DNA from: a virus
Lineage: Duplodnaviria; Caudoviricetes
Reading direction: 5' to 3' (one strand)
Length of the DNA stretch: 44,035 nucleotides
IMG/VR virus record: IMGVR_UViG_3300025530_000020
Location: 1 to 44,035 of that record
Shown here one piece after another: positions 2,897-44,035 of the stretch (the stretch's first letter is position 1; each line of letters opens with the position of its first letter). The position numbers and the translations under genes are program-made. The notes beneath the pieces are model-generated. The model saw only the letters and a program-made list of their open reading frames with translations. It was not told the origin of the DNA and made no database searches.

Positions 2897-5800
2897 CAGC
2901 TCATCCCCGCACCGTGAGCATTAACCTGCCGCTGCACATCGGCGGCTATCTGCTGACCATTGTCCTGACTCGACACGTTCATCTGCCCGATCAACGGCGC
3001 ATTGCCACGCTCGCCAGAACCGTTGCCATTGTTGACATTTGCGAAGCCCTTTTCAATCGCCTTGGTGATGTCCTGCATCGGCACCTCCTGCTGCCCAGCC
3101 GACACAGCCAATTGCGGAGCAGCACCAGCCATAGCACCGGCGATGCGGAACAACCAGTTCTGCGACAAATCGCCAAGCGCAGAACCGTTGGGCAGGAACG
3201 TTTCTGTAACCCCCTGCACCCCGATACCGGCGGCCTGACCGGCGAAACCGATTGTGCGATTGATTAATTCCATCAACATTTGCGCACCAGCAGCCGCAGC
3301 CTGCCCCGCGATAGCCCCACCCGGTCCGGCGCCAGCGGCAGCCCCGGCAACACCAGCACCAGCACCAGCAGCAGACAGCGCACCACTAGCCATTCCCATC
3401 AGCCCGCCACCGAAGCCACCGAAGCCAGAGCCAGCTGGTTGCCAAACGCCTTGACCAGGCGAACGGCCTTGCGGCTGAACAGGAATCGACTCAGAGAACC
3501 CAACGCCCGGCAACAGCCCCATAGGACCACCCATGCCGTGCACCGTGCCCTGCGCGATCAGGTCACCGGCGCGCGAGTACAGCGGCGACCATGGTTGTGC
3601 CCCAACGGAAGTCAGCGGGCCACCTTTGCTCGTCGCCGGTAACGCCTGCTCAATCGGCAAATGCCGGTACTTCTCAAGTTGATTCAGATACGCATACGTG
3701 TTCGCCACAGGATCGTCGCGCCACGACGGATGAATACCGCCTTCCATCGCGAACGCTGGCTTCTGCTGAAACAGCCCGATCACGGTGTGCTCCGGACCCG
3801 TACCGCCTTGCGGCCCACCGGAAGCGGACGGGTTGAGGCCGCTTTCGCCCAGCGCATACGCGACTATCGATTGCGCTTCATGATCGCTGTAGCCGCGTGC
3901 GCGCGCCATCTGGTAGATCATGGCCGCGACGCTCGCCGGATCGTTCGGGTTGACAGCCGGAAACCCTGCTCCGCCACCGCTAATCTGTCCCAGCGCGCCT
4001 CCCAATGACAAACCGCGTCCACCGCTCGGGATCGGCGGGGCAAGCATGCCGATCAGCCCCTTGCCCGGCTCGCTCAGCCCGGCCTGCGCCATACCTATCT
4101 GCTTGATCGCCGACAACTGCCCCAGAAGCGGTGCCGCAGCGAGATTTGCGATGAACTTGACAAGGTTCTCAGCAAGACCGGCCAAGCCTTTGGACAACCC
4201 GAAATCGGCGTCGAGCACAGCACCTATCTGATCCTCGACGGCGGTAGCTGTGTTGGCAACCTTGTCATTCAGCTTCTTCCATTCACCCTGCTGCGCCTCG
4301 GCGAGGTTGCGTAGCGACTCGTCGAGCGCGCGCCGTTTCTGCGCCACATCGTTCTCGGCGGCGAGCAATTCGCGTTGTGTCGCATTGCCTTTGGCGCGAA
4401 CCTCCAACAGCCGAAGGTTCGCTTCCTCAAGGGCTTCCTTCTTCGACAGAACATCCATCTCCGCGCGCCGAACCTTGTCGGGGTCGACGACGCGAGTACC
4501 GCCGGGTCCGAAATCCGTTGAGCCGAAATATGGTTGGACACCACCCGGCATGCCGCTGCCGAACTGCAACGGCCCGTTGATCGCAACATGCACATGGTTG
4601 GTGTGGTCGCCAGCGTTGGCGTAGGTCGAGTCCGGCGTCGGCTGCCCACGGTAGACCTGCCTGCCCGAGAAGCGCGGGTCGTGGTAAATCAGTTCTGCCA
4701 GTTGAGGTCCGAACTCTGCGCGCAGATACTCGGCGAACGCCAGCATGTTGTCGGTGTTGACGCCGCCACCCGGTGGCGCGAAATCCGCTGCCATGCCGGT
4801 CGAATGGAACGAGCCTGTATCTCCCGGGCGCAGACCGGAAGTCATTGTCAGACCGAACTGTTCGGCTATCTGCGCGATACGCAACAGGTCCGGGTGAACC
4901 CCTTGCGCGGTTGCCGGAAAATTCATTGCGCCAGAACCGATGTCAATCGGCAGGTCGACCTGCCATTCGTTCGGATCGAAGTACGGTGGCGGCTCGGAGT
5001 CGCCACCACGGCCCTTATCCGGCATAGTGAATGGCACGCCGGGTCCGCGACTCGGTTTCGGTCGCTTGAACACATCAGGTGCCTCGCCGACCGGCACCAA
5101 CGCGCCCCCCTGCGCTTGATCGAAATCGACGTTGATCTTGATGCGACCGTCGGGCAGGCTTTCGACAGCAATCCCCACATCACGCAGTCGGTCAATAACC
5201 TCCTGCGAATTGTCATTCAGAACAACCTGTTTCGTCTCGGGGATCAGTTCGATGCTGTCCTTGATCTCGTTGTAGAGCTTGATCCGCTCGGACTGCATCT
5301 CGGCGTCGGCGGCAGCTTTATCGGTGGCTTCCGAAATGCTTGCGCTCAACTGCGGCAACGTGTCAAATGCCAAGTCGCTCATGAACGAACTCAAGTCGCC
5401 GAACGTCGACGACCATTCCTGATTCCGCTGAATCAGGCCGTCCAATGCCGTATTCGCCTCAGCTGCACCACGTTTCAGCGCCTTCGCCCAGCCGGGAAGC
5501 GCGGCGTCGGGAATCTTCGACATCACCGTGTCAACAGCGTTGACAACGGTGTCGACAGCCTTGAGCACATGAGCAACAGCACCGGCGCTGACCGACACAG
5601 CCCGCAGCAGCCCCGCCATCCAAGCCGAAATCGATCCTGCCGCAATGACTCCCGCCTGACCGACAGCGCCGAAAAACTCAATCAGTTCAGGCTTGTACTC
5701 CTGAATTTTCGTCAGCACACCGTCAAGCGCCTCGACCATCGTGTCGCCGCTGGCGTTGGCGATGCCTTCGATCATGTCGTAGAACTCAAGCTTGATGCCG

Positions 5801-7029
5801 TCCAGCGTGTTCGACAGGCCCTCAACCACGCCCGGCAGGCCCGCAACCTGCGCTTTCGCCAAATCCGCTGCGTGACCGGTCTTTTCGAACGATTCCATCA
5901 GCGCGTCGAACTTCTCGACACCCTCACCCGCTGCGATCATGCCGCCACGAATGCCGCGCGTTCCGAAGATGTCGGCCATAGCACGTTGGAACTCAGCGGG
6001 ATTCATGCGATCAGCGGCTTCGCCTATCTGCCGCAACAACTCTCGCATACCGACGAAGTTGCCCTCGGCGTCGCGTATCTGAAGCCCCATCTCCTGAATC
6101 GCCTCACCGGCAGCCTTTGACGGAGACGCAAGCTGAATCAGCATGGTGTTCAACGCAGAACCCGCTTCAGCGCCCGTCAGGCCAGCGGAGTGGAACGCGC
6201 CAAGCGTCGCCAGAACCTCTTCAACGCTCAGCCCGAACCCGTGCGCCGTGGTGGCGACGTTCTTCAACGCGTCGGCGTAGCCAGCCATGTCGCCCGGCGC
6301 GCCGGTCACCGTCGCGGCCAGCAAGTCCGCGACGTGCTGCGCTTCGCGCGCGTCTAGCGAAAACGCTTGCAGCACAGACGATTGAATCCGCGCAGCCTCA
6401 GCTGCATCCAGCTGCGCCGCTGTCGCCAACTGCATCGAACCACGAGCCGCATCCATGGCGTCTTGCACGCTCATGCCGCCTTTGACCAGCTCAAGCATCG
6501 CCGTAGCCGCCGACGCTGCCGTGGTGCCGACAAGGTTGATGTCCGAGCCGAGGTCTTGCGCCAGCTTGCGCATCGCGGCCATCTCCTGCTCGGAAGCCTT
6601 TGTCACACCTCGGAATTCGTTGATGGTGCGGGAGAAATCGATCCCGTCGTCAAGGACTGACTTGAAACCCTCGACAACCTTCTTCGCGGCGCGACCGGCG
6701 ATACCGACAAGCTCATTTCCCAACAGCGCCAACGCAACACCGGCGAGGAACGCTCCACCGCTCGACTTGCCAACAGCCATGAAAGTGCTCACCGGCCCGC
6801 TGCGCTGGCTCATGAAACCTTCGGTGAATTGGCTGAACGATGCCGACGCGGACTGCGCAACCTGTTGTCCGAATTGCTGACCGGTACGTGCCGCCTGACT
6901 CTGCATACGGCGCGAAAACTCTTGCGCCGCACGCTCACCAGCACCAGCGAATGCGTTCTCGGCCTGCCGGGCGGCTTCCTGCATAGAACCGGCGTCAAGT
7001 CGGGTCTTGATGTCGATACCGATAGGCAC
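2893..7029 (-). CDS. Tape measure protein with C-terminal putative peptidoglycan-hydrolase domains
   Basis: 1378 aa and Ala/Gly-rich. Has a TP901-like TMP core (AATAMLELVKGG, GAEAGSALNTML), a metallopeptidase-like segment (SGLRPGD..FHSTGMAADF..HTNHVHV) and a lysozyme/transglycosylase-like segment (LGESGLNPSA..GLFQQ). Confidence 0.95.
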   Translation of the reverse strand: MPIGIDIKTRLDAGSMQEAARQAENAFAGAGERAAQEFSRRMQSQAARTGQQFGQQVAQSASASFSQFTEGFMSQRSGPVSTFMAVGKSSGGAFLAGVALALLGNELVGIAGRAAKKVVEGFKSVLDDGIDFSRTINEFRGVTKASEQEMAAMRKLAQDLGSDINLVGTTAASAATAMLELVKGGMSVQDAMDAARGSMQLATAAQLDAAEAARIQSSVLQAFSLDAREAQHVADLLAATVTGAPGDMAGYADALKNVATTAHGFGLSVEEVLATLGAFHSAGLTGAEAGSALNTMLIQLASPSKAAGEAIQEMGLQIRDAEGNFVGMRELLRQIGEAADRMNPAEFQRAMADIFGTRGIRGGMIAAGEGVEKFDALMESFEKTGHAADLAKAQVAGLPGVVEGLSNTLDGIKLEFYDMIEGIANASGDTMVEALDGVLTKIQEYKPELIEFFGAVGQAGVIAAGSISAWMAGLLRAVSVSAGAVAHVLKAVDTVVNAVDTVMSKIPDAALPGWAKALKRGAAEANTALDGLIQRNQEWSSTFGDLSSFMSDLAFDTLPQLSASISEATDKAAADAEMQSERIKLYNEIKDSIELIPETKQVVLNDNSQEVIDRLRDVGIAVESLPDGRIKINVDFDQAQGGALVPVGEAPDVFKRPKPSRGPGVPFTMPDKGRGGDSEPPPYFDPNEWQVDLPIDIGSGAMNFPATAQGVHPDLLRIAQIAEQFGLTMTSGLRPGDTGSFHSTGMAADFAPPGGGVNTDNMLAFAEYLRAEFGPQLAELIYHDPRFSGRQVYRGQPTPDSTYANAGDHTNHVHVAINGPLQFGSGMPGGVQPYFGSTDFGPGGTRVVDPDKVRRAEMDVLSKKEALEEANLRLLEVRAKGNATQRELLAAENDVAQKRRALDESLRNLAEAQQGEWKKLNDKVANTATAVEDQIGAVLDADFGLSKGLAGLAENLVKFIANLAAAPLLGQLSAIKQIGMAQAGLSEPGKGLIGMLAPPIPSGGRGLSLGGALGQISGGGAGFPAVNPNDPASVAAMIYQMARARGYSDHEAQSIVAYALGESGLNPSASGGPQGGTGPEHTVIGLFQQKPAFAMEGGIHPSWRDDPVANTYAYLNQLEKYRHLPIEQALPATSKGGPLTSVGAQPWSPLYSRAGDLIAQGTVHGMGGPMGLLPGVGFSESIPVQPQGRSPGQGVWQPAGSGFGGFGGGLMGMASGALSAAGAGAGVAGAAAGAGPGGAIAGQAAAAGAQMLMELINRTIGFAGQAAGIGVQGVTETFLPNGSALGDLSQNWLFRIAGAMAGAAPQLAVSAGQQEVPMQDITKAIEKGFANVNNGNGSGERGNAPLIGQMNVSSQDNGQQIAADVQRQVNAHGAGMSW

Positions 7030-16394: not shown

Positions 16395-16601
16395 TCAGAC
16401 CGACCTCAACATCGGACCATTACCGTCGTTGCCTTTTCCCGTGCCGCCCTTGTTTTTTGGGTCGTACAACAGACCCGACACGAGCAGCACCAGGCCCCCA
16501 CCGACGATCAGACCGGCGGCGACACCGAAGTGCAGAACAACTCCGGTGATAATCGCCGCCAACCCGACTACCGCCAGCAGCCCAGACATGTTGTTGATCA
16601 C
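16395..16601 (-). CDS. Small two-TM membrane protein between terL and portal
   Basis: Hydrophobic stretch LLAVVGLAAIITGVVLHFGVAAGLIVGGGLVLLV. Preceded by the CAACAAGATTGGAG RBS motif. Confidence 0.7.
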   Translation of the reverse strand: MINNMSGLLAVVGLAAIITGVVLHFGVAAGLIVGGGLVLLVSGLLYDPKNKGGTGKGNDGNGPMLRSV

Positions 16602-16626
16602 CACTCTCCAATCTTGTTGCGCCACA

Positions 16627-19411: not shown

Positions 19412-20515
19412 TCAGGCGCCCCTGCCTTGTGCCGGAGGCTGATACTCGAACGAACGCACCAGGAGGCGGCGCGACGACATATTCAACTTCCGAAGCCATG
19501 GATCAGATGTCGTCGTACGCACAGACCTGGCTTTCGATTTAGTTTCACGCCAACGCGGCGACCTGCTATGCAGCGCTATCATGCCGGGATGAGCAACCAC
19601 GTTTCTGCACCGGTAACCACGGTCGGCGAGATACTGCCCCAACCAATCAGCAAGGCGCGAAGCGATTCCCAAACCCTGATAGTCAGGCAGCACCACCAAC
19701 CGATGCAGCATTTTGATGTTGTTCGTACGCGGGTGGCTGAAGTGCCGGTAAGCCACGAAGGCGCACAACTGATCATCTACGGTAGCCACGAAACACTGCG
19801 CCGCAGAGACTAGCTCCGAACTCAGATAGTGGTGTCGAGCAAACACTCGCCAAACATCGCGCTTAGCTTTGAAGACCTTGAGGTTGAGGCTGGGTCGGGG
19901 TTGAACCGACCTCCACGAAAACTCTTGGGCAGCAACGTCATACACCCAATCAGGTTGCAGCCAATCAACCACGTCATAATGGCAGGTAACCGCCACCAAC
20001 CGGCGATTCTCGACACCCCGAATCGCCTTCTGCACGCTGTGCGACGCAACCCGCGCCACCTGCCGGTCGACAACGCTCGTGAACTCGTCAATAACCACAA
20101 GGTCTTCCGACTCAGCGATAGCGCGCGCCATATCAACGCGGAACTTCTCGCCATTACTCAACGTCGAGTACGGTCGCAGCCACGCCGGAACGGTGCCGAA
20201 ACCAACGCTTGTCAACAGGTTCGTGATATCGCGAATCGGCATGCCGGTCGGGAACTGATCGATGACCGGCGCATCATCGGACCAATCAAAACGCTCCCGC
20301 ACCAGATCGCCCCAAATGCGTTTAGCCAGAACGCTTTTCCCACTACCCGACGGCCCGACAATAAGCCCGACGCGCCAATCAGCGTCATCAATCGGCAAGT
20401 CATGCCGCCACGACAACGCCAACTTCTCGTCAAGGCTTACATCGAACATGCCCGACACCTGCTGCGCCCTGGCGCTACGCGGCGGATCAACCGTCAAATC
20501 AATGTCAACCCTCAA
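19412..20515 (-). CDS. ABC-type ATPase fused to GNAT (Mom-like) acyltransferase, copy 2
   Basis: Walker A GPSGSGKS, signature LSNGE, Walker B VVIDEF, and acyl-CoA motif VVLPDYQGLGIA. Confidence 0.88.
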   Translation of the reverse strand: MRVDIDLTVDPPRSARAQQVSGMFDVSLDEKLALSWRHDLPIDDADWRVGLIVGPSGSGKSVLAKRIWGDLVRERFDWSDDAPVIDQFPTGMPIRDITNLLTSVGFGTVPAWLRPYSTLSNGEKFRVDMARAIAESEDLVVIDEFTSVVDRQVARVASHSVQKAIRGVENRRLVAVTCHYDVVDWLQPDWVYDVAAQEFSWRSVQPRPSLNLKVFKAKRDVWRVFARHHYLSSELVSAAQCFVATVDDQLCAFVAYRHFSHPRTNNIKMLHRLVVLPDYQGLGIASRLADWLGQYLADRGYRCRNVVAHPGMIALHSRSPRWRETKSKARSVRTTTSDPWLRKLNMSSRRLLVRSFEYQPPAQGRGA

Positions 20516-21231: not shown

Positions 21232-21575
21232 CGGTACTCAACCCTGCGCTCGACGCGGTTGTCCTTATCGCAGAACACAACCCGCGCACCAGGGAACGCC
21301 TCGGCCTGCCGGTACGCGATCACCACACAACGATCACCGACCACACCCAATCGAGCGCCGCCGCCGTTGAGCGTGAACACACCGGGAGTGTCGCCAGGCA
21401 GAACGTATGTCGTCCAGCGGCTTCCGTTGTTGAGGTTGACCACATCAACCTGCTCATAGGGCCTGATATCGACCTCGGCCAGCAATTCTGACGCGATGGT
21501 GACGCTGCCGACATAATCCACGCTGGCATCGGTCACGTGCAGGTTGTGCAGCTTCGCTGCCACGAACGTTCTCAT
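21228..21575 (-). CDS. panD: Aspartate 1-decarboxylase (pyruvoyl-dependent)
   Basis: AKLH..VT.A..DYVGSVTI (Gly-Ser autocleavage site), NNGSRWTTYV, LNGGGAR and GDRCVVIAY. Confidence 0.93.
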   Translation of the reverse strand: MRTFVAAKLHNLHVTDASVDYVGSVTIASELLAEVDIRPYEQVDVVNLNNGSRWTTYVLPGDTPGVFTLNGGGARLGVVGDRCVVIAYRQAEAFPGARVVFCDKDNRVERRVEYR

Positions 21576-22672
21576 GAGACTTGCTCTTTCGCTGGCGGCT
21601 GATACTCAAATGAGCGCACCACCAGGCGTCGGCTCGACAACGCTTGCCGCTTCAGGCTGCGGCTCTTCGATGTCGTCCGCACAGACTTGCTCCGCGAGTG
21701 TGTCTCACGCCAACGGGGCGACCGCGAGTACAGCGCGATCATCGCCGGGTGTGCCACGACATTGCGGTAGCGATAGCCCTGATCAGCTAGCCACTGCCCA
21801 AGCCAATCTTCAAGCCGCGACGCGATTCCCAAGCCCTGATAGTCCGGCAGCACGACCAGCCGGTGACCCATCTTGATATTGCGGGTCTTGGCGTGTGGGA
21901 AGTGCAGGTAGCTGGTGAAGGCGCACAGTTCGCCGTCTACGCACGCCACGAAACACTTTGCGGACTTCGCGATTTCGGAACTCAGATAGTGGTGTCGCGC
22001 AAAAACCTTCCATACAGAGGTCGAAGCCTCGTGGACTGTGAGCCGCATGGCCGGTCGGGGTCGAACCGACCTCCACGAAAACTCAAGCCGCGTAACATCA
22101 TAGACCCAGTCCGGCTGAAGCCAATCGATTACATCGTAGTGACAGGTGACGGCGACGAACTGCCGGTTGCTGCGCCTGATCATCTTCTGAACACAGTGGG
22201 AGGCAACGCGAGCCACCTGCCGGTCGACCACGCTGCTGAACTCGTCCACCACAACCAATGAGCCATCAGACTCGGCAACGGCACGCGCCATATCGGTTCT
22301 GAAGCGCTCACCGTTGCTCAAAGTTGAGTAGGGACGCAACCAGGCCGGTACCGTGCCGAACCCGACGCTCGTCAACAGCGCCGTGATGTCCCTGATCGAC
22401 ATATCGCGTGGGAACTGGTCGATGATCGGCTTGTCGGTCCACTCAAAGCCATCGACAACGCGGTCACCCCAAAGTTCGCGAGCCAGAACGGACTTGCCAG
22501 CGCCGGAAGCCCCAACCACAAGACCGACCTGCCACGGCCTCTCCTCGATGGGCAGGTTGTGTGACCAGCTGGCCGCAAGCTTGTCGGTCAGAGGTACATC
22601 GAACATGCCCGACACCTGCTGCGCCCTGACGCTACGCGGCGGATCAAGCGTCAAATCAATGTCAACCCTCAC
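21572..22672 (-). CDS. ABC-type ATPase fused to GNAT (Mom-like) acyltransferase, copy 1
   Basis: GASGAGKS, LSNGE, VVVDEF and VVLPDYQGLGIA motifs. Full-length paralog of 19412-20515. Confidence 0.88.
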   Translation of the reverse strand: MRVDIDLTLDPPRSVRAQQVSGMFDVPLTDKLAASWSHNLPIEERPWQVGLVVGASGAGKSVLARELWGDRVVDGFEWTDKPIIDQFPRDMSIRDITALLTSVGFGTVPAWLRPYSTLSNGERFRTDMARAVAESDGSLVVVDEFSSVVDRQVARVASHCVQKMIRRSNRQFVAVTCHYDVIDWLQPDWVYDVTRLEFSWRSVRPRPAMRLTVHEASTSVWKVFARHHYLSSEIAKSAKCFVACVDGELCAFTSYLHFPHAKTRNIKMGHRLVVLPDYQGLGIASRLEDWLGQWLADQGYRYRNVVAHPAMIALYSRSPRWRETHSRSKSVRTTSKSRSLKRQALSSRRLVVRSFEYQPPAKEQVS

Positions 22673-23232: not shown

Positions 23233-23299
23233 GGTGACTGTGTTTTCCTTTACTTCCTCTGTGCGCCAACAGTTCTGGCGCGACCTCCTACGAGCCTAC

Positions 23300-24300
23300 C
23301 GCCTCTGGGCGGCAACGCTTTCCGCGCACCTCGCTACGCAGCCGCCAAATCCATTGGCGCGCAGCAACGTCCCGACACGTCGAGGCGCACACGGAAAGCG
23401 TTGCGCGGCAATGACTCCCGCGCCCACGCTGCTGCCGCTCGCGGAAGTCGTTGCGGCACAACGCAACCCGACCTCGCCCCGGCCGCGGAAGTTGTTGCGG
23501 GACAACGACTTTAAGGGGCCTTCCAGAGCTGATCGCGCAAAAACGGAGGCGCGGGGCGGTGTCGCCTCGCCGGGGCCCCGGAGCTGAGCGCGCAAAAACG
23601 GAGGCGCGGGGCGGTGTCGCCTCGCCGGGGCCCCGGCGAGGGCCCCCCTCCCCCCTATGTGAGCGCCAAATGCGTTGGGCGGCAACGCTTTTGGTGCACC
23701 GGGGCGGGAAATGCGTTGGGCGGCAATGGATTTGGTGGCTGCGTGCGCGCGCTGGTGGGCGGGCGGCGGAGGCTGGGAGCCGCTGCGGTGCAACGGGTTT
23801 GGCGTGCGGCGCACGGGCTGGCGCGTTGGGCGTCGGGCAGTGTTGGGCGGGCGCGAGTTTGGCGCGCAGCCCGCGAATCCCGTTGTGCCACAACGCTACT
23901 GGCGGCGTGTAGGGCCGCAGAGCGTCGGTCGCGTTGCAGCACAATGCGTTTCGACGCTGCTCGCTGTATCGCGTTGGGCGGCAATGGGATTCGTTTGGCT
24001 TGTGGCGCAGTGCAGCGCGTCGATACCCGCCTTCGACCCAATGCCGTGTCATGCGCTGCACTGCGCTGGCCTGCCTGCAGCTACGTGCTGCTGGACTCGA
24101 ATCGCGTTGGGGCACAGTGCGGTTCGGCTCTACTGTGCTGGAATCCGTTGCGGCTAGCCCATTTTCGATTTTGGCCCCGATGCGGCCCGCGCCCGTGCCC
24201 GTGCCCGTGCCGGGTGACCGGGGTGGTGACTGCTGCGCTGTGCCGCAAGGCTTTTGGTTCAGCGTCCCGTTGGTTGGCTTGTGCGCCAATGGGTTTCGCG
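23300..24300. promoter_or_regulatory. Putative cos/packaging region with an array of CGTTG-N5-CAAYG palindromes
   Basis: Non-coding gap between HNH and the first late gene. About 13 palindromic 15-mers, a C-tract at 23643-23655, and a strand-composition switch. Confidence 0.7.
23526..23635. repeat. 55-bp tandem direct repeat (2 copies, 1 mismatch)
   Basis: GAGCTGA(T/G)CGCGCAAAAACGGAGGCGCGGGGCGGTGTCGCCTCGCCGGGGCCCCG at 23526-23580 and 23581-23635. Confidence 0.95.
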
Positions 24301-24382
24301 TTGCGCGCTCTGCGGTGGCAGCCCCGCCGGGCTGTGCGTGTGCTGTCGTGGGTTGCGTTGTGCGCGTTGATGTTCGGCGCGC

Positions 24383-30216: not shown

Positions 30217-31148
30217 CACCAAACCTCCAATCCACTCTGTTGACCACAGATAGGTGTGTTGCGCCACGAATCGGCGCGGTGACGCATCAACTGCTCGGCG
30301 GCCGCGTACTCGTCCCGCCACCGGTCCCGGTGGGCGTCGGGCCAGTCGGCGGCTCGCCGGTCAACCTCGGCGGCCAGTTCGCCGAGGGTGCCGTCCCAGC
30401 AGCCGATGTTGAGGTGATGGCCGGTGTCAGTGCGGGCCAGTGTGATCCACTGGTTTGCTGATCCGATGGGGCCGATGACCAGAATGTCCTGGGGTGCGCA
30501 CACCCGCGCGTCACCGAGCACGTACGCGTAGCCGGACACCTGCGCGTCGCCGAACACCCGGGCGTTACCGGACACCCGCGCGTCGCCGAACACGCACGCG
30601 TTGTCGGACACCCACGCGTCGCCGAACACCTGTGCGTCGCCGAACACCCACGCGTCGCCGAACACCCGCGCGTCGCCGAACACCCACGCGTCGCCGAACA
30701 CGCGCGCGTTGCCGGACACCCGGGCGTTACCGGACACCCGGGCGTTACCGGACACCCGGGCGTCGCCGGACACCCGGGCGTCGCCGAACACCCGGGCGTT
30801 ATCGAACACCCACGCGTCGCCGGACACCCACGCGTTACCGAACACCTGCGCGCGACCGGACACCCGCGCGTCACCGAACACCCGGGCGTCACCGGACACC
30901 CACGCGCCGCCGGACACCCACGCGACGCCGGACACCCGGGCGTCGCCGAACACCCGGGCGTCACCGGACACCCGCGCGTTACCGGACACCCACGCGCGGT
31001 CGAACACGTTGTCGGTGGACTCCACCCAGCCACCCAAATCCCCGGCCTCCACACCATGCTCCGGCAAATCACGAACCGCGCGAATCCGGTGCAGCACAAC
31101 CCCATTCGGCGTGGCCATCGTCTCATCAGTCAACTCAAAAAGACTCAC
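30216..31148 (-). CDS. Hexapeptide-repeat (left-handed beta-helix) protein
   Basis: LHRIRAVRD..GDLGGWVES N-terminus followed by about 28 G[DN]A[RWQ]V[SF] repeats. Confidence 0.85.
   Translation of the reverse strand: MSLFELTDETMATPNGVVLHRIRAVRDLPEHGVEAGDLGGWVESTDNVFDRAWVSGNARVSGDARVFGDARVSGVAWVSGGAWVSGDARVFGDARVSGRAQVFGNAWVSGDAWVFDNARVFGDARVSGDARVSGNARVSGNARVSGNARVFGDAWVFGDARVFGDAWVFGDAQVFGDAWVSDNACVFGDARVSGNARVFGDAQVSGYAYVLGDARVCAPQDILVIGPIGSANQWITLARTDTGHHLNIGCWDGTLGELAAEVDRRAADWPDAHRDRWRDEYAAAEQLMRHRADSWRNTPICGQQSGLEVW
30500..31000. repeat. 18-bp coding tandem repeat array
   Basis: Units like CCG(G/A)ACACCC(G/A)(G/C)GCGT(C/T)(G/A) encode the hexapeptides. Confidence 0.9.
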
Positions 31149-36828: not shown

Positions 36829-37056
36829 CTAGCCGACTACGACCGCGTCGCGCAGTGCCCGCACAACGGTGACTGGGTACTTCGGTCGCCACACCCTGTT
36901 GATGTGGTCGGCCACAGCGGCGGCGGCCTCGAATGTCCTGTAGGCGTAAGGACTTACCCGGTATCCGGACGGTTTGACCAGTCCTCCGTACACGCTGTAC
37001 CGCAGGGCGGTCTCGGTGTCCCGGTAGTAGTGCAATGCGTATGCCATTCGACTCAT
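36829..37056 (-). CDS. Hypothetical protein
   Basis: AGGAGG RBS and a 4-nt overlap. Confidence 0.55.
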   Translation of the reverse strand: MSRMAYALHYYRDTETALRYSVYGGLVKPSGYRVSPYAYRTFEAAAAVADHINRVWRPKYPVTVVRALRDAVVVG

Positions 37057-37199
37057 TCCTCCTTCCCATCGTCGTCGACGACACGGCAGTTGTGCAGGAA
37101 CGCTTCAACCCACAGGGAACCGGAATGCTTGTGCCGCTTGAGAATTCGCAGCGCCTCAACGAGGGCCTGCTGTTCGCGGCTGGTGATCTTCGGGAGCAT
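37053..37199 (-). CDS. Small hypothetical protein
   Basis: MLPKITSREQQALVEALRIL... Confidence 0.5.
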   Translation of the reverse strand: MLPKITSREQQALVEALRILKRHKHSGSLWVEAFLHNCRVVDDDGKEE

Positions 37200-37217
37200 C
37201 AAGCCCCCAATAAATGG

Positions 37218-37282
37218 GCCGACCCGGCGAGGTCCACAACAAGATTGGAGATCACAGTAGCGGTTTCCATCACCGGGTCGGC
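37218..37282 (-). ncRNA. Candidate antisense RNA element (13-bp stem, 39-nt loop complementary to a multi-gene RBS motif)
   Basis: Minus-strand GCCGACCCGGUGA pairs with UCGCCGGGUCGGC. The loop contains AUCUCCAAUCUUGUUGUGG. Confidence 0.5.
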
Positions 37283-37623
37283 TCCCGCAGCATACCACGC
37301 CGGTCCCATGCTTCCATGGTTGGTGTCCACGGTCCGCTCGCGTCGAGTGGCACAATCTGTCCGTTCTGATTGATCCACCGGCCGTTGGTCCTTGTCGCGG
37401 TGGTGCGCCCGCCTCGGACTTGTGTCACGTGTGCGGGAACGTCTTCCAGCAGTGCGTAGCTCGGTTGATCGGTCACGGTGTTCTCCTTGTCATTCGTACG
37501 GTGTCGGAGATCAACATCCTCGACGGCGCGACACTGACAGGCATGGCTGCCCGGCGTTCTGGCGCGCCGTAGACGCGCCAGAACGCCAGCCAGCACAGCC
37601 AGTGCAGCGACGATCCTCGTCAT
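37270..37623 (-). CDS. Hypothetical protein (internal strong start GTG 37476 possible)
   Basis: 4-nt overlap with the upstream gene. AAGGAG RBS before VTDQPSY. Confidence 0.5.
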   Translation of the reverse strand: MTRIVAALAVLAGVLARLRRARTPGSHACQCRAVEDVDLRHRTNDKENTVTDQPSYALLEDVPAHVTQVRGGRTTATRTNGRWINQNGQIVPLDASGPWTPTMEAWDRRGMLREPTR

Positions 37624-37880
37624 GTCGGCACACCAGCCTGTTCAAGGGCGAGCAGCCGTTCCACAGCGACAGCGAGCCACCAAGTCATCGTGACGTAGCT
37701 CGAATCACTGCATGTGCCAAGCGATTCGAAGATCGCCGCTAGCGCGGTAACCCGAGCGGTCGGCGTCTTCGGGGCACGACCGGCATCGATGTCTGCCTGC
37801 AACCGTCGCAACAGTTCATCGAAGCTCGATGTCATGCCGTCGAAGTCGTGAATACATTTCTCACACACGGATTTACTCAC
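37620..37880 (-). CDS. Hypothetical protein
   Basis: 86-aa ORF coupled to its neighbours. Confidence 0.55.
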   Translation of the reverse strand: MSKSVCEKCIHDFDGMTSSFDELLRRLQADIDAGRAPKTPTARVTALAAIFESLGTCSDSSYVTMTWWLAVAVERLLALEQAGVPT

Positions 37881-38553
37881 CTTCGAGACTGTCGAGGATG
37901 GCCGTCAACCCGTCGATAATCTCGCGCAGCTTCGACGCGTTGTTCTTGGCAATCGTCTTGCGCGAGTTCTCGAATCGCGGGTCGACTGCCAGCTCGGCGA
38001 GCACGTCGAGCTGTGTTTTCAGTTCGGACACAACGTCTTTCACTTCACCGGTGATGGGACGCCGCTGCACCGTCGGTGGCTCGTCGTCCTCGTCGACTTC
38101 CTCGACATCAAGCGGTTCCTCGCCGGATTCCTTGTGCTGCTGAGGCTTCCGCTTTTTGTAAGTCTTGCCGTCGAGTCCGGTGACTTCCTCCGGAGTATCG
38201 GCGTCGGCGAGGTCATTGCGCACCGTGCCCTCGCTCACCCCGGTGATCGCGGCGATGGTGCGGTTGCTCATGCCCTTGCCGGACATAAGCTCTGCCAACG
38301 CTTTTCGCTCGTCCCGGTCCACCGGCGCAATCTTCACGGCATCCTTGACGTACGCCGTCCACGACTTATAGCCGAGGGCCACATGGATTTGCCCGAGCGC
38401 AGCCTGTTCCAGCAGATCGATCAGGTGGTCGAAGCTATTGACAACCTGTTCGCTGGCCTTGCGGATTTGCGCGTCAAGTTCCTTGGCTTTCTCTTCGCTG
38501 AACGGCTGGGTGCTATCGATGATTTCGGGTTCGATGTACGGCTCGACCGTCAT
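37873..38553 (-). CDS. Helix-turn-helix DNA-binding protein
   Basis: LGYKSWTAYV; GMSNRTIAAITGVSEGTVRNDL; VTGLDGKTY. Confidence 0.8.
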   Translation of the reverse strand: MTVEPYIEPEIIDSTQPFSEEKAKELDAQIRKASEQVVNSFDHLIDLLEQAALGQIHVALGYKSWTAYVKDAVKIAPVDRDERKALAELMSGKGMSNRTIAAITGVSEGTVRNDLADADTPEEVTGLDGKTYKKRKPQQHKESGEEPLDVEEVDEDDEPPTVQRRPITGEVKDVVSELKTQLDVLAELAVDPRFENSRKTIAKNNASKLREIIDGLTAILDSLEGE

Positions 38554-38655
38554 TGCTGTTTCCTCCAATCTCGTTGTGGATTCGATGGGTGGTGTGGTTC
38601 ACCGCTCTGTTCGGCGGGGCGGCCTCCTTTCTCGTTGAGCGCCAACGCGTTTTGT

Positions 38656-40400: not shown

Positions 40401-40609
40401 GGGTGGGACTGTAGCACGGGTGTCCCGATTTCGGACACAATGTTCGGTCAGCGGATCGCCGCGTCGGGATCGTCGCAGTTCAAAGGGTGTTGCGCTGTCC
40501 CGAAAACCGGACTAAACTGCCCGCAACCCGTACGGGAAGACCGGCGGTACATATACATAAATAGGCAGCGAATGCGCCTTTGAGACCACAGGGGTGTAAG
40601 GGGATTTAA
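40401..40609. promoter_or_regulatory. Divergent promoter/operator region
   Basis: Operator-like GTGTCCCGATTTCGGACAC (~40420-40438) and TGTCCCGAAAACCGGAC (~40496-40512). AT-rich TACATATACATAAAT. Confidence 0.5.
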
Positions 40610-41616: not shown

Positions 41617-41713
41617 TTCTGTCTCCAATCATGTTGTGTACCAAATGTGAATGGCCTGAGCAGGCCAGGAACCGCAGGTGCGCAACCATGCGCACGCGCG
41701 GAACCCTACCGGC

Positions 41714-42088
41714 TCAGACAGTTCGCAATAGTTCGTCGTCCACATTGAACAGGCCGAGCCGCCCTCGTAGCGGTACCGGATCAATGGGACGCGGCCTGGA
41801 AAGTACCCAATGCCAATGCTGGCGCATTGCCCATCTACTGCGAACGCCCTTGCGGCAATCGACAATATCGACGAACCCGATCACCGCGCCGAACACGAGA
41901 TCGTCGTCGTCAGGCACATCGACGCCGCTATTTTTTATGAACGCCAACGCTTCTCGGTCGAAGCTTTTCCCGGCGTGAATCGCAAGCGGCCCACGGTAGT
42001 TGGTGAACCATGTGCGATTCTCAACATCCTTGAGGCCCTGCATGATTGCCCATGCCCAAGGTTGCTTCACCGACAGGCAGACAGCCAT
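41714..42088 (-). CDS. ASCH domain protein
   Basis: LSVKQPWAWAI..GLKDVENRTW.T.YRGPLAIHAG..GRLGLF. Confidence 0.9.
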   Translation of the reverse strand: MAVCLSVKQPWAWAIMQGLKDVENRTWFTNYRGPLAIHAGKSFDREALAFIKNSGVDVPDDDDLVFGAVIGFVDIVDCRKGVRSRWAMRQHWHWVLSRPRPIDPVPLRGRLGLFNVDDELLRTV

Positions 42089-42230
42089 CTACTCATCACC
42101 GCCCGAAATGGTCGGCGGCGCAACGTGCTCCTTGCTCATCACTGCCTCCAATCTCGTTGTGGTTCAGACTATTCGGGACTGAATAGCCGTGGAAGCCAAC
42201 GGGTCTAAGCCCGTTGGCAACCATGACGAT

Positions 42231-42404
42231 TCAGGCGGGCCTGTCATCACCACACTGATCGCAATGGACCAGCACCACCGAGCCAGTACTACGAGTCAAC
42301 GCCCAGCCATCCGGCAGCACGTCGAACATCTCGCAATACAGGCCAGGAACCTGTTGTGGCTCACTGACTTTGCCGCACTCGTCGCACTCAAGCAGTACAG
42401 CCAT
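42231..42404 (-). CDS. 57-aa zinc-ribbon protein
   Basis: Not in the ORF track. MAVLLECDECGK...DGW...HCDQCG. Confidence 0.6.
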   Translation of the reverse strand: MAVLLECDECGKVSEPQQVPGLYCEMFDVLPDGWALTRSTGSVVLVHCDQCGDDRPA

Positions 42405-43091: not shown

Positions 43092-43267
43092 CTCTATCTC
43101 CAATCTTGTTGTGGTTTCGACTGTTCGGGCTGAACAGCCGTGGAAGCCAGCGGACCGCAAATCCGCTGGCAACCATGGCGGTTCAGTCGAATCGACACGA
43201 ATTCCGGTCTTGAGCGACCGTGGAAGCCAACGGACCGAAATCCGTTGGCAACCATGAGCGCTCAAGC

Positions 43268-43537
43268 TCAGCGACGACGCACGATTCGCCTGCGGTGCCA
43301 CCTACAGTGCTGCATCGCGTCGCGCATGGTGGGGAACCAATCGATGCTTTCCCCTGCGCCCACGTCTGTCCGAAGGCGACCCTCAGGGTCGTACACAGCG
43401 GACCATTCGCCGCCCTCGAACCCCTCGTAATCACCTTCGGCCCAGACGCTTTTGCTTCGCGGCAGACTGTCGTGCATCACCGCGTACACGCCGTCAAGCG
43501 TTGCGTACCAACTTTTTTGGACCTTTGTGAACCTCAC
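43268..43537 (-). CDS. Hypothetical protein
   Basis: 89-aa ORF with a GTGA overlap. Confidence 0.6.
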   Translation of the reverse strand: MRFTKVQKSWYATLDGVYAVMHDSLPRSKSVWAEGDYEGFEGGEWSAVYDPEGRLRTDVGAGESIDWFPTMRDAMQHCRWHRRRIVRRR

Positions 43538-43905
43538 AGTTCATCATCCTCCGGCTCTCCGTTGTCAAGCTCCCAGCCAGCCTCGCCAGCCAGTCGCAAC
43601 GCGACACGGAGCGAACGCCGATAACGCTGCGACGCAACGGTTTTCATGAACCACGGCGCGAAACGATGCAGCTCACCGTAGTGAGCGGTGATGGCCGTCG
43701 GCCATGCTTCGACGAGTATGCCGACAATCTCATCGCTAGGCACCACAAGGACATCGCCATCCTTGATGTCCTCGCGAACCTGTGTGTCGTTGTAGCACAT
43801 CACGGTGTCCGGAAACACGTGAACCCGAACGCCTTGAATCGTGACCGATTCCGGCATGCCCTTGACGACCCACTGGTTCGCCGGTGCCGCAACATCAATC
43901 GCCAT
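43534..43905 (-). CDS. Hypothetical protein
   Basis: ATG 43905 after the GATTGGAG motif. YNDTQVREDIKDGDVLVV..VGILVEAWPTA. Confidence 0.7.
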   Translation of the reverse strand: MAIDVAAPANQWVVKGMPESVTIQGVRVHVFPDTVMCYNDTQVREDIKDGDVLVVPSDEIVGILVEAWPTAITAHYGELHRFAPWFMKTVASQRYRRSLRVALRLAGEAGWELDNGEPEDDEL

Positions 43906-44035
43906 CTTTGTCTCCAATCTCGTTGTGGTTGTTTTCCGTTTCGGTCTGAGCGACCGTGGAAGCCAACGGATCGAAATCCGTTGGCAACCATGAGCGCTCA
44001 GCTCTCGTGAGTGGTAGCCACGGTCACCCCTCCGC

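Follow-up and report, generated by a model that had tools for sequence, protein, structure and literature searches.

The 44,035-nucleotide (nt) stretch analysed here, referred to throughout as the window, is IMG/VR record IMGVR_UViG_3300025530_000020 and is a whole 44-kb virus record with nearly all of its genes on the minus strand. At positions 37218-37282 of that strand lies a hairpin whose loop is the complement of a short sequence, hereafter the tag, found in the ribosome-binding leaders of several genes of the same phage. It is probable, judging from the sequences of the element and its relatives, that the hairpin is a trans-acting antisense RNA that blocks translation of the tagged genes. 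Support for this comes from a stem that is conserved in related phages, from strand-specific G-U pairs, from a promoter-like box ahead of the stem and from one relative, G003, in which loop and leaders appear to have been adjusted together.

The hairpin and its loop

The element was first described in an earlier reading of the window's letters (the original prediction), and its parts are as follows:

37270 to 37282, minus strand: 5' arm of the outer stem, overlapping the last codons and TGA of the upstream open reading frame (ORF)
37231 to 37269, minus strand: enclosed region of 39 nt, with a weak inner helix and an apical loop
37234 to 37252, minus strand: 19 nt antisense to the tagged leaders
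37242 to 37250, minus strand: core CUCCAAUCU, its first 8 nt invariant in seven of seven copies and all 9 nt in six of the seven
37218 to 37230, minus strand: 3' arm of the outer stem

The coordinates and sequences of the 13-bp stem are as that prediction gave them, and its 19/19 complement between the loop and the leader at 43096-43114 of a clamp-like gene was found correct on re-checking. The stem is indeed complete on the minus strand only, where it includes a U-G pair and folds at -35.8 kcal/mol (z -6.3), the plus-strand fold being interrupted at that position. For comparison, just 0.44% of the 19-nt windows of the minus strand have a stem of 13 bp or longer around them. The description of a 39-nt intergenic loop stood for the length and for the loop, which is intergenic, but the 5' arm consists of the final codons and stop of ORF 37476-37270, and because the predicted fold contains an inner helix just part of the 39 nt would be single-stranded (core about 0.7 unpaired).

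The tag, its genes and the 16S rRNA tail

The leaders that the loop could pair with in the window are given below with the net binding calculated for each, opening costs included:

43096 to 43114, minus strand: tagged leader of the beta-clamp-like gene, 19/19 complement, -21.9 kcal/mol
38563 to 38579, minus strand: tagged leader of the HTH gene, -20.0 kcal/mol
43912 to 43928, minus strand: tagged leader of a gene for a 123-amino-acid protein of unknown function, -17.8 kcal/mol
42146 to 42162, minus strand: tagged leader of a 16-codon ORF (42139-42089), -15.9 kcal/mol
16606 to 16622, minus strand: tagged leader of a small membrane gene in the terminase-portal interval, -15.4 kcal/mol
41623 to 41639, minus strand: tagged leader of the DUF3846 gene, 2 mismatches, -13.0 kcal/mol
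30225 to 30232, minus strand: seed-only site ahead of the DUF732 gene, a weak candidate, -10.4 kcal/mol

The 17-nt motif has eight matches in the window at up to 3 mismatches, against 0.21 expected. Four exact copies stand ahead of start codons on the minus strand and two more, at 16606 and 41623, carry 2 mismatches, in agreement with the full and partial targets originally listed; at 24096 a copy with 3 mismatches lacks a start codon, and the hairpin loop itself (37234-37250) contains the sole inverted copy. The 8-nt seed GATTGGAG occurs seven times on the major strand, where a start codon always follows 3-10 nt further on, and the opposite strand has two copies. Not all of these targets are early genes, as the small membrane gene (16601) lies between the terminase and the portal and there is a seventh, weaker site at the DUF732 gene (30216). 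Six of the seven sites fall outside the structural genes, and the tagged genes include beta-clamp-like, DUF3846, HTH, DUF732, membrane and unknown types. Avoidance of the antisense word on the coding strand was considered as well and rejected, its counts not being below third-order Markov expectation.

When the proposed check of pairing energies was run, the tagged leaders of the window bound more strongly than untagged ones, with net energies of -10.4 to -21.9 kcal/mol for the seven tagged leaders and -2.4 to -8.9 kcal/mol for seven hand-picked untagged leaders. The core CUCCAAUCU is the tail of 16S rRNA with UU changed to AA. The tail, ...CACCTCCTTTCT, was taken from three mycobacterial genomes and is presumably the end of mature 16S rRNA; it is complementary to AGA-AA-GGAG, whereas the tag reads AGA-UU-GGAG. 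The invariant core spans exactly the Shine-Dalgarno, which in the original prediction every target covers. Such a tag would be expected to go on recruiting ribosomes yet to pair better with the phage RNA. Within five mycobacterial genomes the 9-nt tag followed by a start codon occurs 0-6 times per genome, and the full 14-nt tag with a start codon is present in 7 of 401 Mycobacteriaceae genomes, once in each; with the tag so rare there, the host is unlikely to be the main target.

Conservation in related phages

Scanning viral contigs for the motif produced 17 stretches, which led to the relatives G001 and G002, whilst the exonuclease led to G003. Same-strand tags number 15 in G001 and 8 in G002 at up to 2 mismatches. 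Similarity to the window lies in the terminase (71% for G001, 78% for G002) or in the HTH protein (33-55%), and the one direct DNA comparison made, that of G001 with the window, returned two short matches only. G002 has an inverted copy within a 12-bp stem, downstream of its homologous HTH gene. An alignment of the HTH protein gave 48 metagenome and 6 genome loci; 40 of these 54 were examined for stems, three being the window's own phage, and a hairpin was found at 4 of the 37 others (L216, L217, L222 and L224). As L217 overlaps G001 over 2,606 identical bases the phage of G001 has the hairpin too, and in G003 it sits at the same place, downstream of the HTH gene. There are thus seven copies in seven phages (window, G002, G001/L217, L216, L222, L224 and G003), always 3' of an HTH homologue, and in the window, G002, L216, L217 and L224 the hairpin is placed between the HTH block and the replication genes. 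All three long relatives with the repeated tag (G001, G002 and G003) have the hairpin; among the loci without it, more than one tag-like leader is seen only in L221, which ends 380 nt after the HTH gene. The neighbouring genes of the window are:

37873 to 38553, minus strand: HTH protein gene, the syntenic anchor and itself a tagged target
37270 to 37476, minus strand: upstream ORF of 68 amino acids, function unknown, last gene of the HTH block, no Pfam match
37053 to 37199, minus strand: downstream ORF of 48 amino acids, with a weak homologue also 3' of the hairpin in L217

The loop core CUCCAAUC is invariant in all seven copies and the arms differ. In the six other phages with the hairpin the stem shows compensatory changes. 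Across the outer nine pairs 58 of 58 cells are paired, with 13-48% paired in slid controls, and four pairs are changed on both sides; G003's four cells are out of register in this count, the four double-changed pairs stand without them, and kinship inflates shuffle tests. A conserved peptide across the element was rejected, since the differences in length between copies are not multiples of 3, which means that the copies are not coding.

The stem also carries information on the strand that is used. G-U pairs are present in the outer stem of five of the seven copies, G003 having four such pairs, they become A-C mismatches on the opposite strand, and the minus (transcribed) strand folds better in all seven. 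These pairs count against a decoy, in which a plus-strand transcript bearing the sense tag would titrate a protein reader of the tagged leaders, as does the orientation of the -10 box and tail, described below, to the minus strand. The plus strand is also stable, at -31.3 kcal/mol, and a protein reader has been suggested for the start-associated sequences (SAS) of cluster K phages (PMC3203893, PMC11373665), but a decoy is very improbable. Even less probable is that the inverted copy is a functionless by-product of hairpin-mediated micro-inversion of an old leader. Inverted repeats do flank the copy, and the repeated leaders vary and may recombine, but seven diverged phages preserve both the orientation and the core even as paired changes occur in the arms, and on the plus strand the inverted motif is not followed by an ATG, GTG or TTG. 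A neutral inversion is largely refuted by this conservation.

Pairing between each RNA and its own leaders has likewise been retained. Across four phages all 41 tagged leaders pair with their own RNA over at least 9 contiguous bp and 40 of the 41 over at least 11, the range being 9-19. G003 is of particular use here, as its six leaders lack the A before the seed and the RNAs of the other phages pair with them over 8-9 bp only. The G003 RNA has its complement extended into the spacer and pairs with its own leaders over 11-13 bp (mean 12.3). The G003 loop thus appears to have shifted to match its own leaders, a single case of co-adjustment rather than a series. Covariation of loop and leader in relatives was among the checks put forward in the original prediction, and those of its checks that sequence allows favour its interpretation.

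Not all of these relatives have the same arrangement of genes. At 4700-6300 of L217 there are an integrase-like ORF, a tRNA-like stretch and a repressor-like reverse gene, with none of these at that place in the window, "integrase-like" and "repressor-like" being names given by reading the sequence. The window phage may have lost a cassette of this type. Tags in L217 stand ahead of the repressor-like gene and of a reverse-strand gene, and two reverse-strand genes within 4700-6300 carry one. The stop of the tagged 16-codon ORF in the window adjoins the start of an ASCH gene, and a longer ORF is found at that place in L217.

Reverse-strand genes are informative about a double-stranded DNA operator acting in either orientation, with the flanking repeat incidental, which the original prediction held out as the alternative. 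In its favour, an HTH gene and a ribbon-helix-helix gene are nearby. The tags, however, are always on the coding strand, a few nt before the start codon at a fixed spacing, and flip with reverse-strand genes in L217, in G002 and in the cluster K phage ZoeJ, and the operator is therefore disfavoured. The main variable position of the tag, moreover, is A or G opposite a U, and a DNA site needs no covarying, G-U-biased stem; the chance of an operator is put as very slim.

Wider searches returned little beyond these copies. Viral contigs searched with the HTH protein, or with the alignment made from it, yielded no relative, though the patterns miss G002's own copy. A promoter-plus-core scan gave 31 matches, with a stem of at least 10 bp in G002 only, and a stem-plus-core scan gave 11, of which G002 alone was convincing. 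Covariance model R1, run against 82 sources, produced useful E-values only for the seven training copies and their reverse strands, and it found none in 151 genomes of the genus around G006, a run that scored only 40 candidates from each genome and contained no positive control.

Promoter-like box, tail and transcripts

Two features outside the stem may define the ends of the RNA:

37289 to 37297, minus strand: promoter-like box of the extended -10 type (TG-N-TANNNT), 6 nt ahead of the stem's first G, with no recognisable -35
37209 to 37215, minus strand: A/U-rich tail after the stem, candidate 3' end

Extended -10 boxes number 5 in the window against 23 expected. The box lies 6 nt ahead of the stem in both the window and G002, and xANNNT is present at equal spacing in L216 and L217. 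Four metatranscriptome runs, labelled as bioreactor metagenome, contain the region as contigs, and the element is covered in X1, X2 and X4. The shares in X3 and X4 are small, and no weight attaches to the absence of the element from X3. The X2 and X4 contigs end at 37214 and 37206, just beyond the stem, and the X1 contig continues across; the two ends are a weak hint of a 3' end after the stem.

These features could also belong to a cis-acting terminator or attenuator ahead of the SSB-like and primase-polymerase genes, where tagged early leaders bound to the loop would set read-through, and CI RNA attenuation in P4 provides a precedent. U-rich tails follow the stem in five of the seven copies, the position between the HTH block and the replication genes in five phages suits such a role, and the contig ends, which come from two studies, are weakly in its favour. 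On the other hand, the complement in the window stops short of the outer stem, so that binding need not open it, the element is not among the matches of a consensus terminator scan (short-loop GC stem, at least 5 U in 8 nt) and the X1 contig crosses it. In cluster K the analogous hairpin is found at two unrelated places, which suits a diffusible RNA. An attenuator is thus considered unlikely and an antisense RNA acting in trans remains preferred.

Another of the five boxes, at 40408-40416, is 7 nt ahead of the ATG (40400) of an HTH repressor-like gene, the transcript of which is likely to be leaderless.

Leader hairpins beside the tags

Directly 5' of four of the tags in the window are five long irregular hairpins of 54-61 nt, which fold as RNA at -31 to -40 kcal/mol:

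43947 to 44000, minus strand: long irregular leader hairpin 5' of the tag at 43912
43211 to 43264, minus strand: first of two leader hairpins 5' of the tag at 43096
43130 to 43185, minus strand: second of two leader hairpins 5' of the tag at 43096
42179 to 42233, minus strand: leader hairpin 5' of the tag at 42146
41656 to 41716, minus strand: leader hairpin 5' of the tag at 41623

The same family of hairpins is found in the early regions of G001, G002 and G003, many opening with a TGA or TAA triplet. They presumably resemble RNase III sites, and the early RNase III sites of T7 are a precedent for long hairpins ahead of early genes. The leader hairpins may be double-strand nuclease sites at which the early transcript is cut into single-gene mRNAs. 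Contigs from the RNA runs have a variant loop in one leader hairpin (42204-42209), and at 43097-43933 they contain joints between repeated leaders, with genes not found in the window behind the same tag. Such joints could come from cassette shuffling or, their sides being short, from assembly.

Given these neighbours, it has to be considered that the RNA pairs with the tags and that the main effect is nuclease cleavage, stabilisation or storage of the leaders. Duplexes of 11-19 bp beside hairpins that look like double-strand nuclease substrates would be consistent with this, but competition with the ribosome predicts an invariant core such as this one, which coincides with the Shine-Dalgarno and is a mirror of the 16S tail. 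Cleavage, stabilisation or storage as the main outcome is accordingly improbable, with the block to translation preferred.

Start-associated sequences of cluster K phages

A comparable arrangement exists in phages with a different tag. SAS repeats were described by Pope et al. in 2011 without a known role, together with one opposite-strand copy in four K1 phages (PMC3203893), and their role was still called unknown in 2024 and 2025 (PMC11373665, PMC12699233). The available portions of these three papers give the inverted copy no role, and in that of the 2025 survey of 188 K phages the words 'antisense' and 'opposite' are absent (PMC12699233). In Adephagia the inverted SAS sits at the tip of a hairpin, as an apical loop above an outer stem of 13 bp. 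This hairpin lies in the interval between genes 92 and 93, the apparent starting point of late transcription (PMC11373665). Five K1 phages have an exact copy of the loop, and the K5 phages Paola and Kratio have an inverted SAS in a 15-bp stem near the left end. Taking the five K1 phages and Paola together, 94.8% of the cells are paired, with changes to both partners in three of the pairs. A 33-nt loop query matches 144 Mycobacterium phage records, some partially. The cluster K loop, too, is the 16S tail, here with one U changed to A.

SAS and the window tag are alike in being over-conserved, asymmetric Shine-Dalgarno tags on many non-structural genes and in one orientation, that of the gene, and both K1 and the window have one inverted copy without a gene start. 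The differences are also clear. The 13-bp K consensus has no match in the window at up to 2 mismatches, and the extended SAS (ESAS) are 17-bp inverted-repeat promoters that do not pair as RNA, whereas the elements upstream of the window tags are long RNA hairpins. The K1 inverted copy is within a long multi-stem late leader, whereas the window hairpin stands alone. The window RNA model found no match in K phage DNA, thus the two look convergent.

Not every cluster K phage has the hairpin. None was found in Marshawn, Keshu, Yuna, LeMond, Nergal, TM4, ZoeJ or Aminay, and Ellie and Phrank have a degenerate pyrimidine loop. An inverted SAS in ZoeJ was rejected as an antisense copy, being the ordinary leader of a leftward gene.

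Other features of the cluster K region are conserved. At 30560-30900 of locus L153, and in L185-L195, a conserved promoter-like TAGACT box stands ahead of a multi-stem leader that shows compensatory changes, with a conserved motif further downstream, and these are kept even where the anti-SAS loop is lost. Adephagia gene 39 (L153 3345-3743) is SAS-tagged and its product, reportedly Hfq-like by fold (PMC11373665), may act as a chaperone in the pairing. Of the 21 window proteins scanned, none matched Sm/Hfq.

Evidence against an antisense role

A number of observations weigh against antisense control of the tagged genes. No hairpin was shown at 33 of the 37 other HTH loci, many of which are short or distant. 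The only leaders visible in L216 and L224 are mismatched at mid-core, and the HTH leader of L222 has no tag. The -10 pattern is at canonical spacing in four of the seven copies, being 1 nt further away in L224 and not found there in L222 and G003, and the U-rich tails of L222 and L224 are weak. The contigs from RNA runs carry no information on strand or ends and may include DNA, as X1 covers every bin. In cluster K the inverted-SAS hairpin is absent from 10 of the 17 phages examined (picked along a ranking or from papers, not at random), all of which keep 9-23 SAS, and the cluster EF phage AnnaSerena (PMC7302621) has 10 SAS with no inverted copy in a stem; such tags can therefore be kept for other reasons. 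Finally, a simple shut-off of early genes does not account for the target at 16601 among the virion genes or for the tags on repressor-like and reverse-strand genes in L217.

Relation to known regulatory RNAs

The original prediction drew a loose analogy with C4 of P1, an antisense RNA with which P1 and P7 block translation around one of their own ribosome-binding sites (PMC12197685). The analogy is sound in that both are phage RNAs with loop-exposed complements to a ribosome-binding site of the same phage, which in the window the displayed complement is predicted to cover. It fails in the target, as C4 acts on an antirepressor mRNA and no antirepressor is targeted here, RNAs of the window type matching 6-17 unrelated genes per phage. 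Nor is there a match in Rfam at the element, the sole match in the window (E 0.98) being to an unrelated miRNA model far below the cut-off.

Closer in terms of host are the 6C and B11 RNAs, the loops of which pair with the ribosome-binding sites of many mRNAs and repress translation in mycobacteria (PMC10470900). Loop pairing with ribosome-binding sites, in the same host group, is common to both systems, but 6C and B11 are host-encoded with two generic C-run loops, whereas here the RNA has a single loop with core CUCCAAUCU and is supplied by a phage, together with a private tag that hardly occurs in host genomes. The repeats of cluster O phages are of a different, palindromic type (PMC4351075). 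In the literature searched, which leaves most subscription papers outside it, no antisense RNA to SAS-type tags is described. An RNA loop blocking a ribosome-binding site is known; a private phage tag read by one phage RNA was not found in that literature or in Rfam.

The phage and its host

The window contains tail, head, terminase, replication and small early gene blocks. Its terminase is about 69% identical to terminases of Mycobacterium abscessus prophages. A megablast for named relatives by DNA found none, and another DNA search gave short, distant matches only; with no named phage close in DNA, the host can be suggested at the level of a mycobacterium or a relative. An 18-bp tandem array (30407-31126, about 26 offsets listed) is within a minus-strand ORF that likely encodes a hexapeptide-repeat protein. 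ABC-ATPase/acetyltransferase-like genes (phrog_11143) are duplicated in tandem at 19412-20515 and 21572-22672, where they adjoin a ParB-like gene with the terminase downstream. The repeat-rich region 23288-24380, with two 55-nt direct repeats, several inverted repeats, no family match and late genes downstream, is a candidate structured late leader or packaging region.

Proposed mechanism and its meaning

In the mechanism envisaged, an RNA of 65-75 nt would be transcribed from the 37289-37297 box, or freed as the 3' end of the transcript of the HTH block, and would end at the U-rich tail. The first pairs would form at the CUCCAAUC core, which is exposed, and pairing would then extend along the inner helix's 3' strand, with the outer stem remaining closed; RNA lying on the tags would block ribosome loading, so that early gene products are probably turned down once infection has advanced. 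The RNA would pair over 9 unbroken nt on tagged leaders and poorly on host-type leaders, this selectivity arising from the difference between AGA-UU-GGAG in the tag and the AGA-AA-GGAG that complements the 16S tail. As the HTH gene upstream is itself tagged, a feedback loop could arise if transcription reads through from the HTH block or if the box, which lacks a -35, is activated. L217 is a temperate relative with a tag ahead of a repressor-like reverse gene beside an integrase-like ORF, and there the RNA might keep immunity down as well while the phage grows lytically.

A broader proposal, for which the case for and the case against seem evenly balanced, is that phages build private translation regulons by placing a slightly off-consensus Shine-Dalgarno tag before any gene to be controlled and making a single RNA in which the 16S tail is reproduced with the corresponding change. 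That RNA would act as an orthogonal anti-Shine-Dalgarno and outcompete the ribosome for pairing on tagged mRNAs only. Such regulons would have had at least two origins in actinophages, in the window family and in cluster K1/K5, and would explain the inverted SAS copy of 2011. The finding offers a concrete reader of SAS, namely an antisense loop. If true, a phage would control a set of genes via a portable address of 9-14 nt, and since the address is portable, newly acquired genes would enter the regulon once they had the tag. Tag and RNA would also form a naturally occurring orthogonal Shine-Dalgarno/anti-Shine-Dalgarno pair, usable for gene control in mycobacteria.
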